Assembly (NCBI GenBank): GCA_964447635.1
Contig: CAYUUC010000072.1
Location: forward strand, 1-13,842
Origin: an uncultured Spirochaetia bacterium
Lineage (GTDB): Bacteria > Spirochaetota > UBA6919 > CAYUUC01
Length of the DNA stretch: 13,842 bases
Direction of reading: 5' to 3'
Shown: piece by piece, positions 994-5,046 of the stretch
How the letters are laid out: each line of letters opens with the position of its first letter
How positions within the stretch are numbered: position 1 is the first letter of the stretch
The notes under the pieces: generated by a model
Database searches by the model: none
What the model was told of the DNA's origin: nothing
The model's input: the letters and a program-made list of their open reading frames with translations, nothing else
Translations under genes and position numbers: made by a program

Positions 994-1752
994 ATGTTTG
1001 ACTGGTTTTACGATTTATCCGTTTTAGAAAAAGTTTTCTGGGTTATAGCTTCCGGTTTCTCTGTGATTTTCCTAATACAATTAATATTAACATTTATTGG
1101 TATTGGAGGGGCTTCTGATGCTGAGATTGATACTGATATAGGTACTGACTTTGATACCGATGTCGATGTAGGAACGGATGTCGATGTGGACACCGATGTT
1201 GATATGGATGCTGATGTAGGAGCAGATGCTGATATGGGAGCAGATGTCGATACAGATGTTGATGTGGATGCGGATGCAGACCACCCCCATGTTAATGATT
1301 CGGATATGACTGACTATGACCGCTCCAAGACCAGCCGTAAGCGAAGGTTTAAGCTATTGACCTTCCGAGGGATTGTGGCTTTCTTTATGGTTTTCGGCTG
1401 GGCAGACATCATAGCGAAGAATTCTGGTATGAACACTCTCAATTCTGTTTTGATTGCCTCAGCGATGGGATTAGGGATGATGTTCTTAATATCGCTAATC
1501 TTCTACTTCCTACTGGGTCTAACTGAGAGTGGCAATATAGACATCAGAAATGCGGTAGGCTCTACAGGGAAGGTCTACTTGCCCATTCCAGCCGAGTCAC
1601 AAGGCTTTGGTAAGGTTCAAATCATTGTTCAGGGTGCAGTAAGAGAGATGGATGCGATAACCATTGGAGAAAGGCTCCCTACTGGAACTAATATCCGAGT
1701 TATCGGAATAGTTAAAGGTAAACTTTTGGTAGAAGAAATGGAAAAAAAATAG
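994..1752 (+). CDS. YqiJ/NfeD-like inner-membrane protein (N-terminal TM segment, poly-acidic D-X repeat linker, further TM helices, C-terminal OB-fold domain)
   Basis: ATG at 994 is preceded by GAGGT at 984-988. Hydrophobic N-terminus (VFWVIASGFSVIFLIQLILTFIGIGG). Acidic DxDxD tract, two more TM helices, then a C-terminal beta-rich region (GKVYLPIPAESQGFGKVQIIVQGAVREMDAITIGERLPTGTNIRVIGIVKG) typical of the NfeD/YqiJ OB-fold. A flotillin gene lies immediately downstream, as in the yqiJK / yuaF-floT pairs. Confidence 0.7.
   Translation: MFDWFYDLSVLEKVFWVIASGFSVIFLIQLILTFIGIGGASDAEIDTDIGTDFDTDVDVGTDVDVDTDVDMDADVGADADMGADVDTDVDVDADADHPHVNDSDMTDYDRSKTSRKRRFKLLTFRGIVAFFMVFGWADIIAKNSGMNTLNSVLIASAMGLGMMFLISLIFYFLLGLTESGNIDIRNAVGSTGKVYLPIPAESQGFGKVQIIVQGAVREMDAITIGERLPTGTNIRVIGIVKGKLLVEEMEKK
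1117..1284 (+). repeat. Imperfect tandem hexanucleotide coding repeat (GAT-GTN / GAT-GCN / GAT-ACN) encoding (Asp-[Thr/Val/Ala/Met/Gly])n, ~28 units
   Basis: The DNA reads gatactgatataggtactgactttgataccgatgtcgatgtaggaacggatgtcgatgtggacaccgatgttgatatggatgctgatgtaggagcagatgctgatatgggagcagatgtcgatacagatgttgatgtggatgcggatgcagac. Translation is DAEIDTDIGTDFDTDVDVGTDVDVDTDVDMDADVGADADMGADVDTDVDVDADAD. Confidence 0.8.
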
Positions 1753-3313: not shown

Positions 3314-3700
3314 TCATTTTAATCCCAACATTTTAAGTAAGGATTCCAGTAAACTATCATTACTGGTTGGGTTTGGGGATTTTTGTTTTTTCTTTCTGGA
3401 GTTTTGTCTTTTTTTCGAATTAGTTCTTAATGCTTTCCTGATTGGTGGTTTAGTCTTTTTTGACTGATGTGATGCTTTCTTCTTCCTGCTGTTTGGTCTT
3501 GGTTTTAGTTCGGTGGGGAAAATCTCATCGGATAAGTTTTCCCTGTTCTTCAGGTCTCTTCTATAGCGTTTGATAATCTTTAGCCATTCATCGGTCGTTT
3601 TCCTCTCACCATTGGTGAACACATCAAACAAAGCATTCTTGATATAGCGTGGCATGTGGCTCCAGATGAACCGCCATGCACCATCGGGAGTTTTTTTTTA
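3314..3700 (-). pseudogene. Out-of-frame (-1) continuation of the PIN-kinase gene: conserved-looking kinase C-lobe helices followed by a Lys/Arg-rich tail. It is contiguous with the kinase ORF only if the A9 run is read as A10 or A8.
   Basis: Minus-strand frame after the homopolymer reads KKTPDGAWRFIWSHMPRYIKNALFDVFTNGERKTTDEWLKIIKRYRRDLKNRENLSDEIFPTELKPRPNSRKKKASHQSKKTKPPIRKALRTNSKKRQNSRKKKQKSPNPTSNDSLLESLLKMLGLK, with stop at 3314-3316. A TAA stop in this frame sits immediately 5' of the A-run (3698-3700), so the two halves join exactly at the homopolymer. Confidence 0.6.
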
Positions 3701-5046
3701 CGGTCTTTTCCATACGGGTATGAAAACTCAGTTCGTTTGATGTTGGTTGCAGGGTCACTTCCTCCACGTTTGGAATAAGGAGGCTTCCCCGGCATCAGTA
3801 TCATGAAAACCAGTGTAGAAACAGCGAAGTATTCATGCTGGAATGTTCTCAATGTCCGTTTATAGTCCTTACCTTGAAGCTCAGGAGGAGTATAGTTCAC
3901 CGTCCCCACCGGACAGGGGTATGCCTCTATCTGGAAGCTGTCTGTATCTACGAAATAGACCTCGTGTTCGTCTTTGACTAATATGTTAAGCGGATTTATA
4001 TCACCTATGATAATGTTTCTCATGTGTAGTTGCTTAATCATCCTAAGTATGTTGATACATAAGGTCAATAGGTTCAATCTTGTCCAGCCTGGGAAGGTCT
4101 TAAACAGCAGAGGCTTAATGAACAATGACTTCTGCAACTCCTTACCTGATGCCTTATTCATAAGATAGCCCACAAAGTCCCCTTTGTTATTGTAAACCAT
4201 CTCTATTGGCCAGCATATCCCTTTATAGTCAACGGGATTGGTCAGCATAAGGGTAATCTTATCCCGTTTTATGGTTGTGAGTTTGCTCTTCTTATAAACT
4301 TTACAAGCGAATCCAGTATCCGTAGAGTAAACAGATCCTTCACCCCCTTTGCCTATCTCCTTGGTTAATCTATGGTAAGTCTTTTCCCCGGTTTCATCCT
4401 TCGTATATACCGTATCATTTATAGAAGGGATACCTGATACTTTTAGATAATGCTTTTTATCGAAATTAACAGGCTTTTTACATAGTTTGAATGTTTTAAC
4501 AGGTTTGCTTATCTTCGCTGGATGCTTGCTAAGAGACATCTGTTTACCGACTGTCCCGGCGAGTAGTTCTTCTGCTGAGGTTTTACTTTTGATACGGAAA
4601 GCCTTAAACTCTTTCTTGCCGTTCACGCCTACATCTTGCCTTAACTTGAAGATACTTTTTACCAATGCCCTATTTTGTGTTATCAGGCATAAATCGTATT
4701 TATATGTAAGGTCGATACTCAGTTTACAGAACAAGTCATTAAGATGCGGGTCATTCTTATCACCGACTATCTCGGCACACTTCTCCCTAACTAATGACTT
4801 CAAAAGTTGGAGTGCCTTTTTAGATTTAATGGATTTGGTTTGTTCTTCACCGGCTTCCATTTTGCGAAGGTCTTCCACTAATCGATAAGGGATTACCAGC
4901 TTATTGCTGTGCTTCTTTAAAAATTCAGCGAAGAATCCTGATAAAAATCCTTTAGCGGATTTATGAGTTATGCTGGTTATATCTAGTAGCAATTTGTATT
5001 CTGAGGCTATTTTTTCGATGTCTATGGTATTTTTTAAATCATCCAT
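3580..5046 (-). CDS. PIN-like domain + Hanks-type Ser/Thr protein kinase domain protein. This is the reading frame as it stands, and it very likely terminates artificially after the A9 tract.
   Basis: N-terminus has a PIN-like motif pattern: YKLLLDITSI (beta1 Asp), LVIPYRLVEDLRKM (conserved Glu), LITQNRAL. Kinase motifs: Gly-rich loop IGKGGEGSVYS, beta3 Lys in ACKVYKK, catalytic loop IIIGDINPLNILV (D...N), Mg-binding VYFVDTDSF, activation-segment end GTVNYTPPELQ, then GKPPYS. Beyond the KKK codons at 3691-3699 the frame encodes a Cys/Met-rich 36-aa tail (LPMVHGGSSGATCHAISRMLCLMCSPMVRGKRPMNG) that does not look protein-like. Confidence 0.75.
   Translation of the reverse strand: MDDLKNTIDIEKIASEYKLLLDITSITHKSAKGFLSGFFAEFLKKHSNKLVIPYRLVEDLRKMEAGEEQTKSIKSKKALQLLKSLVREKCAEIVGDKNDPHLNDLFCKLSIDLTYKYDLCLITQNRALVKSIFKLRQDVGVNGKKEFKAFRIKSKTSAEELLAGTVGKQMSLSKHPAKISKPVKTFKLCKKPVNFDKKHYLKVSGIPSINDTVYTKDETGEKTYHRLTKEIGKGGEGSVYSTDTGFACKVYKKSKLTTIKRDKITLMLTNPVDYKGICWPIEMVYNNKGDFVGYLMNKASGKELQKSLFIKPLLFKTFPGWTRLNLLTLCINILRMIKQLHMRNIIIGDINPLNILVKDEHEVYFVDTDSFQIEAYPCPVGTVNYTPPELQGKDYKRTLRTFQHEYFAVSTLVFMILMPGKPPYSKRGGSDPATNIKRTEFSYPYGKDRKKKLPMVHGGSSGATCHAISRMLCLMCSPMVRGKRPMNG
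3691..3699 (-). repeat. A9 homopolymer (T9 on + strand) in coding sequence, coinciding with the frame break of the kinase gene. Candidate slippery site A_AAA_AAA.
   Basis: + strand ...gggagtttttttttacgg.... The minus-strand codons read cgt aaa aaa aaa ctc in the upstream frame. Confidence 0.9.

Follow-up and report, generated by a model that had tools for sequence, protein, structure and literature searches.

Does a kinase gene that is cut in two by a run of nine adenines still give one full-length enzyme? The question is raised by contig CAYUUC010000072.1 (GenBank assembly GCA_964447635.1) of an uncultured Spirochaetia bacterium, a stretch of 13,842 nucleotides that is called here the window, where the minus strand carries a gene coding for a PIN-like domain and a serine/threonine (Ser/Thr) kinase domain. 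The nine-adenine run (A9) inside this gene is probably an evolutionarily retained recoding site, at which slippage, most likely by an RNA polymerase adding one A, would make a 577-amino-acid kinase. This reading was reached from the sequence of the gene and its relatives, and the observations that carry it are the layout of the two frames, the recurrence of the same frameshift in diverged lineages and the selection acting on the shifted frame.

Layout of the interrupted gene

Examination of the minus strand revealed an open reading frame (ORF) of 488 amino acids, from ATG at 5046 to TAA at 3582..3580, which defines the 0 frame. Codons 449-453 of the gene are CGT AAA AAA AAA CTC, with A9 at 3699..3691 (T9 on the plus strand), and this run is the sole homopolymer of at least nine bases within the 13.8-kb window. 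Past A9 the 0 frame continues for 36 codons, LPMVHGGSSGATCHAISRMLCLMCSPMVRGKRPMNG (LPMVHGG...RPMNG), before its TAA, and the -1 frame is open for 125 codons, TPDGAWRFIWSHMPRYIKNALFDVF...LLKMLGLK, up to a stop at 3316..3314. An earlier note on this DNA had described a kinase gene interrupted exactly at A9, 36 codons before a stop at 3580, and a -1 frame with a TAA at the A-run followed by 125 codons; both descriptions proved accurate. It had further proposed that a run of either ten or eight adenines would join the frames. Addition of one A in silico (A10) does so and gives a 577-amino-acid protein, ...SYPYGKDRKKK-TPDGAWRFIWSHMPRYIKNALFDVF..., collinear with the in-frame homologues P0003 and P0004, and A7 or A13 would serve equally; A8 does not, as it opens a third frame that meets a stop after about 24 codons. 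The features of the gene are as follows.

3314..5046, minus strand: whole putatively recoded gene, with PIN-like domain, Ser/Thr kinase, basic tail and C-terminal helix; 577 amino acids if one A is added
3580..5046, minus strand: 0-frame ORF of 488 amino acids given by standard decoding, ending in a non-conserved out-of-frame tail of 36 amino acids
4567..5028, minus strand: N-terminal PIN-like domain, residues ~7-160 (PF13638 in homologues; alpha/beta domain in the P0003 model)
3700..4365, minus strand: kinase domain upstream of the run, residues 228-451, with G-loop, catalytic Lys, catalytic-loop Asp/Asn, DxD motif and PPE motif
3698..3700, minus strand: -1-frame TAA overlapping CG[T AA]A, shared by L001 and L002
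3691..3699, minus strand: A9 putative slippage run, three AAA Lys codons; heptamer A_AAA_AAA at 3697..3691 in the correct phase
3687..3690, minus strand: invariant CTCC directly 3' of the run, read as ACT-CCN (Thr-Pro) after the shift
3488..3691, minus strand: post-slip -1-frame segment, residues 453-520, kinase C-lobe helices TPxGxWxxIWSHxPRYIK...R...W...Y...IFP
3353..3487, minus strand: Lys/Arg-rich segment, residues 521-565, predicted to be disordered (equivalent P0003 residues 530-601 have pLDDT, the predicted local distance difference test score, below 50)
3314..3352, minus strand: C-terminal helix SLLESLLKMLGLK and stop codon, motif (L/F)xxLLK(M/L/I)LG in the window, L001, L002, L003 and P0003

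Given the TAA at 3698..3700, any shift is confined to the last seven A's of the run. The tryptic peptide of the trans-frame product would be TPDGAWR (after ...DRKKK), and that of the 0-frame tail LPMVHGGSSGATCHAISR. The eleven other genes of the window are all intact. One of them, the NfeD-like gene at 994..1752, ends in an A8 run (1742-1749, at its very end, ...EEMEKK and stop), which is in frame and harmless.

The break falls within the catalytic domain. A Pfam search matched PF00069 to residues 228-439, which correspond to profile positions 4-212 of 263 (37.4 bits against a cut-off of 31.7, E = 2.4e-9), so that about fifty C-lobe positions remain beyond the match, and the run lies at residues 450-452. 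The G-loop GKGGEG is present and K253, D353, N358, D371 and D373 are invariant in the family alignment; a Pfam match above the gathering threshold combined with a G-loop, a catalytic Lys, the Asp/Asn pair and a metal-binding Asp places the protein among the eukaryotic-like Ser/Thr kinases. In an alignment of 58 diverse family members the residues P, G, W, W, S, K and F just past the junction are invariant. The AlphaFold model of P0003, the closest in-frame relative (mean pLDDT 84.8), places helices 461-467, 471-482 and 489-505 (pLDDT 93-98) directly past the junction, beyond which the basic tail is disordered, with a short terminal helix at residues 603-610. These invariant residues and helices agree with the suggestion, also made in the earlier note, that the -1 frame encodes genuine C-lobe structure. 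With Foldseek, about 290-310 columns of the model were aligned with Aurora, FGFR2, PKA and PknB, the top matches. Judged from this model, the 488-amino-acid product would lack the last three kinase C-lobe helices and is predicted to be catalytically crippled and unlikely to be an active kinase.

Conservation of the frameshift and selection beyond it

The same frameshift was found in four lineages: the window, L001 (GCA_963991375.1), L002 (GCA_964617315.1) and L003 (SRR32473247). Their proteins are 53-70% identical, all read CGN-AAA-AAA-AAA-CTC-C at the site and all need the same -1 shift. The sites of the three relatives are listed below.

L001: CGT AAA AAA AAA CTC CGG
L002: CGT AAA AAA AAA CTC CGG
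L003: CGA AAA AAA AAA CTC CTG (A10, made up of CGA and A9, with the phase unchanged)

One extra A restores TP(D/E)G(A/S)W(R/K)FIWSH... in L001, L002 and L003, and the repaired lengths are 577, 574, 575 and more than 552 amino acids for the window, L001, L002 and L003, respectively. The guanine-plus-cytosine contents of the four loci (38, 31, 35 and 26% in the same order) indicate different organisms. L001 is syntenic with the window (response regulator-kinase, GAF-SpoIIE, pyrB, pyrI, pyrD, pyrK, phosphoesterase, kinase, flotillin, NfeD-like and desaturase genes), and the neighbours of the L002 and L003 genes differ from those of the window. The closest database proteins, P0002 (487 amino acids, 70% identity to the query), P0005 (463, 57%) and P0006 (474, 53%), all end just past RKKK, and the strain variants P0144 and P0142/P0145 have the same out-of-frame tail. 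Two further proteins that end near the site, P0200 and P0262, were considered as shifted members and rejected, being in-frame partial proteins.

The run also recurs in separate assemblies of two of these lineages, the window type and the L002 type. L005 (ERR1878617) differs from the window by 1 mismatch in 1966 nucleotides, L088 (GCA_963990945.1) by 8 mismatches and no gap in 4181 nucleotides, and L089 (Joint Genome Institute, JGI, 3300012009) from L002 by 3 mismatches; A9 is kept in each. JGI sample 3300012009 contains both L004, of the window type, and L089, of the L002 type, with 57% protein identity, so that two co-resident organisms carry the same A9 frameshift. A full-length ON form of the shifted genes was found neither among 5.8 billion protein clusters nor in any assembly. 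Among the genome contigs there was no close relative (best match 43% identity), and the viral contigs searched gave no relative and no occurrence of a slip-site pattern. Based on each gene's own codon usage, the chance of finding AAA at 12/12 Lys codons and ACT at 4/4 Thr codons is about 1e-4; by this estimate the conservation of the A9 run is more than chance.

Synonymous divergence (pS) between the lineages is 0.7-1.0 and thus saturated. Over the 68 codons past the run non-synonymous divergence (pN) is 0.07-0.25 and does not exceed that of the upstream part (0.18-0.33). Both frames are open over the 17 codons directly past the run, and pairwise comparison of this stretch counts 38 synonymous against 14 non-synonymous changes if it is read in the -1 frame, and 9 synonymous against 44 non-synonymous changes if it is read in the 0 frame. 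These figures show strong purifying selection on the -1 frame from the run onwards. This frame is open for 122-128 codons in every lineage with a contig long enough to include the stop; in L003 it stays open as far as the contig goes. In L002 its first ATG, GTG or TTG comes at codon 124 of 128, and in L003 there is none before codon 52; with no early start codon in these two, only a shift of frame at the run gives access to the conserved region. Between the upstream and downstream parts neither a promoter-like nor a terminator-like site was found. The comparison of orthologues that the earlier note had called for was also made on the 0-frame side: its Cys-rich tail is not shared by relatives, the 0-frame stop lying 36 (window), 16, 16 or 39 codons past the run, and neither the tail sequences nor the stop position are conserved.

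Relatives with an intact frame lack the run. In the near clade two members are in frame; their codons at the site are AGT AAA AAT ACG (P0003/L086) and AAA AAG AAA GAT ACG (P0004/L087), with the run broken in each, and the Thr codon past it is ACG in these in-frame relatives and ACT in 4/4 shifted lineages. Among these genes a broken frame goes exactly with the presence of the slippery run, and an intact frame with its destruction. In a neighbour-joining tree, a crude method, bootstrap support is 100% for the near clade of six sequences and 99% for P0003, the window and L001 as one group; a clade made of the four shifted genes was rejected (0% bootstrap). Possible histories are that the common ancestor was already shifted and the frame was repaired on two occasions, with the run destroyed each time, or that the shift arose two or three times. 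In the wider family the window-type frameshift was found at none of 76 other sites (80 genome loci), all 76 of which align with the kinase in a single frame there. The commonest codons at the site are AAY AAA AAA ACN, and the first Lys of the run stands where the wider family has Asn, Ser or Thr. A plausible route is that an Asn to Lys change gave an in-frame A10, from which one A was later lost.

Other homopolymers and frame changes were seen in more distant members. An in-frame A9 occupies the equivalent position in L055 (~3715-3740, Desulfamplus sp., TCA AAA AAA AAG) and in L063 (~3976-4000, Selenomonadaceae, GAA AAA AAA ACC); slippage at these two would truncate the kinase, a polarity opposite to that of the window. 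In L071 (~3693-3723, metagenome-assembled genome, MAG, of Treponema sp.) and L084 (~2194-2347, MAG of Faecalimonas sp.) the frame changes at one shared A-rich site, GAAAAAATTAAA, in the N-lobe, in the KIYKKE...KLKLML region and away from any long homopolymer; these two may be pseudogenes, errors or another slip site. Two copies of a distant member in Campylobacter gastrosuis (L060 3527-3535, and L061) have a C9 tract in the PIN-kinase linker, with the parts in different frames, which looks like a classic Campylobacter poly-G/C phase-variable switch.

How the frame may be changed

Standard read-out of the gene would yield the 488-amino-acid protein, and in a fraction of expression events a -1 shift inside A9 would yield the full-length enzyme of 577 amino acids (...GKDRKKK-TPDGAWRFIWSH...). 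Most likely RNA polymerase would slip on the nine A's and leave an extra A in some transcripts; the same protein would result if ribosome-bound Lys-tRNAs slipped by -1 on A_AAA_AAA, which may be a contributing event. Transcriptional slippage is favoured, with a confidence somewhat better than even, because no conserved stimulator was found, because 9/9 A's are kept where seven would suffice and because the first Lys replaces an Asn, Ser or Thr. Three sequence features of programmed transcriptional slippage were looked for and all three were found, namely a run of about nine or more A or T at the frame junction, the fusion of a conserved ORF by one added base, and conservation among orthologues with purifying selection. 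A run of A9 or T9 is the documented threshold for bacterial transcriptional slippage, and selection against such runs is visible at that length (PMC1088944). From these patterns we infer which event would shift the frame, how efficiently it would do so and what its purpose may be, the last being to keep the amount or proportion of full-length kinase fixed, probably at a low value.

The explanation that survives best beside polymerase slippage is programmed ribosomal frameshifting, in which two Lys-tRNAs slip back by one base on A_AAA_AAA and the transcripts are faithful A9 copies. A heptamer of the X_XXY_YYZ type is indeed present in the 0-frame phase (3697..3691), the -1 frame stays closed up to two codons before the junction, A-rich heptamers are proven in insertion sequence (IS) elements and dnaX (PMC4066793, PMC1088944), and the product would be identical. 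Against it stands the lack of the usual company of such sites: a conserved hairpin or pseudoknot 5-9 nucleotides downstream, or a 5' Shine-Dalgarno-like (SD-like) stimulator, was searched for around the run and none was found. Minimum free energy folds of single sequences around the site gave z-scores from -1.9 to +0.8, the alignment fold (alifold) had an energy of -6.7 kcal/mol with negligible covariation, and an Rfam search of the site returned no match. The sole recurrent pairing, CUCC..GGAG, has zero spacing and a 3' arm dictated by Trp-Arg or Trp-Ser codons. A stimulator is not needed at all known ribosomal frameshift sites. The conservation of nine A's out of nine, where seven would do, also counts against ribosomal slippage alone, and RNA polymerase is expected to slip on a run of this length in any case (PMC1088944). 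Ribosomal slippage as the whole cause of the shift is thus unlikely, and we give similarly little weight to a ribosomal contribution, be it alone or in addition to that of the polymerase.

Less probable again is a phase-variable contingency gene, in which replication slippage would toggle the tract between A9 (OFF) and A10 (ON) and the assemblies would have caught the prevailing OFF state. A homopolymer within a coding region is the classic substrate for such switches, the out-of-frame C9 of C. gastrosuis hints that on/off control suits the family, and P0003 and P0004 lie beside a DNA methylase gene and a RloB-like gene, with a flavour of defence islands. Neither the assemblies nor the database clusters, however, showed length polymorphism or the coexistence of ON and OFF alleles: no length variant and no ON allele was recovered from the assemblies or the protein collection, and exactly three AAA codons in the same phase are present in all sequenced strains and lineages. 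Strict conservation of length at saturated synonymous divergence is unlike hypermutable contingency tracts. We regard this explanation as improbable.

An error of homopolymer sequencing or assembly, with a true A10 genome and an ordinary single-frame gene behind it, was suggested by the error-proneness of homopolymers on some platforms and by the perfectly normal look of the repaired gene, but it is very improbable: the same length recurs in at least eight assemblies, which stem from four organisms and from a variety of projects and pipelines (among them ERR1878617, GCA_963990945.1, the window and JGI 3300012009, GCA_963991375.1, GCA_964617315.1 and SRR32473247), L003 has the upstream codon CGA and hence A10, yet the same phase, the other eleven genes of the window are intact, and an in-frame A10 was never recovered. 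A pseudogene, or two genes consisting of a truncated kinase and a small C-terminal protein started at ATG 3655, is just as improbable in spite of the 102-113-amino-acid downstream ORF that gene callers annotate in the window, L001 and L004 and of the in-frame ATG 12 codons past the run in the window and L001, since the downstream frame shows neither relaxed selection nor decay past the frameshift (pN and pS as given above), five family-invariant residues lie in the 12 codons ahead of the ATG (TPDGAWRFIWSH), Leu takes the ATG position in L002 and L003, where no usable start codon is present, and no promoter-like or terminator-like site separates the parts. Sequencing error, pseudogene and split gene are effectively excluded by the recurrence of the site in relatives and assemblies together with the selection on the -1 frame. 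Of the three options that the earlier note had left side by side, namely sequencing error, phase switch and programmed slippage, the last fits best, and the note's proposal that the full-length PIN-kinase is the real product is supported by the collinearity of the 577 residues with in-frame homologues and by the purifying selection downstream.

Several points weigh against a retained recoding site. Only four shifted lineages are known and they are not independent; finding three AAA Lys codons is only moderately improbable when the gene is AT-rich; and the missing stimulator counts here as well. The shifted genes are not monophyletic, which calls for two losses or for two to three gains. Finally, A9 is mutable at the DNA level, and rare ON alleles may lie hidden beneath the consensus of the assemblies.

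A more speculative extension of the recoding model, which we consider slightly less probable than phase variation, is that A9 acts as a regulatory sensor, beyond merely fixing a ratio. Slippage would become more frequent when transcription is perturbed, for instance by an imbalance of nucleotide pools or by phage takeover of RNA polymerase, the crippled short form (PIN-like domain and incomplete kinase) and the full-length form would act in opposite ways, and the kinase would be switched on. The defence-like neighbours (DNA methylase, RloB-like) and the Campylobacter poly-C switch are compatible with a role of the family in conflict or defence. If this were true, kinase activity would be switched by the state of the transcription machinery itself.

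The protein family, known recoding systems and significance

The window gene belongs to a large family. Among the 8000 candidates scored, 1622 were homologues at E<=1e-3, and a search of representatives with P0003 yielded 7378 homologues at E<=1e-3, of which the near clade makes up only two 50%-identity clusters. Homologues often also carry the PIN domain PF13638 and a zinc ribbon (PF13451). A search with the C-terminal fragment reached 5 candidates and gave 2 matches. Searches of the PADLOC and NCBIfam libraries gave only generic kinase similarity, and the gene is therefore not filed as a known defence system. The wider family keeps the acidic residues of the PIN active site as D, E, D and QD, the D of the QD motif being present in 55/58 family members, and in the near clade, including the window, the last is QN or QS and the third position is variable. 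The change from QD to QN/QS lies at 4672-4686 in the window (residues 121-125, LITQN) and at the equivalent positions in L001-L003, P0003 and P0004. Judged by these residues, the PIN-like domain of the near clade may be catalytically inactive. Many loci of Bacillota and Selenomonadales have a stand-alone PIN paralogue of about 130 amino acids directly upstream of the full PIN-kinase gene (L013, L014, L024, L028, L047-L049, L054, L063, L066, L070, L074, L075, L077 and L078).

As regards gene context, an N6/N4 DNA methyltransferase (L086 2086-3183) adjoins P0003 and a RloB-like gene (L087 255-1001) adjoins P0004, which hints at a defence-island setting; the window and L001 have pyrimidine-biosynthesis and flotillin genes instead. 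PyrB of the window has its best named matches exclusively in Candidatus Cloacimonadota/Cloacimonetes (59-65% identity), and by this similarity the host would be Cloacimonadota-like. Public annotation names the downstream fragment (window 3314-3655; L004 6001-6309) 'chromatin segregation and condensation protein Rec8/ScpA/Scc1 (kleisin family)', and incomplete copies of the upstream part are labelled 'DNA-binding helix-hairpin-helix protein with protein kinase domain'. The kleisin name is an artefact of annotating the basic tail alone.

Conserved recoding sites in non-mobile bacterial chromosomal genes are few, the familiar ones being dnaX, prfB, mxiE/spa and tssM. The closest parallels to the window are mxiE and spa13 of Shigella flexneri, which are likewise cellular, non-mobile genes whose two frames overlap at a run of about nine identical bases (PMC1088944, PMC5009743). 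There, as proposed here, one non-templated base leads to the longer functional protein and standard decoding to a short product: the slip in mxiE makes a longer product (PMC1088944) and spa13 gives 25-30% of extended product (PMC5009743). The protein and the phylum are different, and the split of the window gene cuts through a catalytic domain, whereas in mxiE and spa13 two modules are joined. In tssM of Citrobacter rodentium and Yersinia pseudotuberculosis, a poly-A run just before a premature stop is conserved between species and slippage restores the C-terminal domain (PMC4256274), as would be the case in the window. However, both length variants of TssM were shown to be needed, whereas the short form in the window lacks core kinase helices, and the run of Citrobacter tssM1 is A11 (PMC4256274) and not A9.

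The dnaX gene of Thermus thermophilus also has a nine-A run inside a cellular coding sequence, which gives about 50% of slipped product (PMC1088944), but its templated frame encodes the long product and slippage the short one, so that the polarity in the window is reversed. E. coli dnaX and the IS3/IS1-type elements that shift on A_AAA_AAG or A_AAA_AAA resemble the window in their in-phase slippery Lys-Lys heptamer and trans-frame fusion (PMC4066793). Such sites are usually accompanied by an SD-like 5' element and/or a 3' hairpin, neither of which is conserved in the window, where the run is also longer than a heptamer.

A further likeness comes from insect endosymbionts (Buchnera, Blochmannia), in which Tamas et al. 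reportedly described in 2008 that frameshifts in poly(A) tracts are rescued by polymerase infidelity. As in the window, an A-run frameshift is said to be retained over evolution with the downstream frame under selection. In the endosymbionts, however, the phenomenon is reportedly genome-wide and associated with extreme AT bias and weak selection, whereas here it concerns a single gene in an otherwise intact region and the run is lost in the in-frame relatives. In the literature we found no description of the PIN-kinase family or its recoding, nor of recoding in Cloacimonadota. The novelty is in the protein family, the phylum and the cut through a catalytic domain; the architecture and polarity are already known from mxiE/spa13 and tssM.

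Annotation pipelines now split the gene into a 488-amino-acid 'kinase' and a 102-113-amino-acid 'hypothetical' or mis-named protein, and the annotation ought instead to give the real product as one trans-frame protein. The family offers a natural contrast between members in which the run is present and the frame broken and members in which the run is destroyed and the frame intact, and it illustrates that a homopolymer frameshift can be kept while synonymous sites saturate. The window gene would add a signalling enzyme from an uncultured phylum to the recoded chromosomal genes of bacteria.

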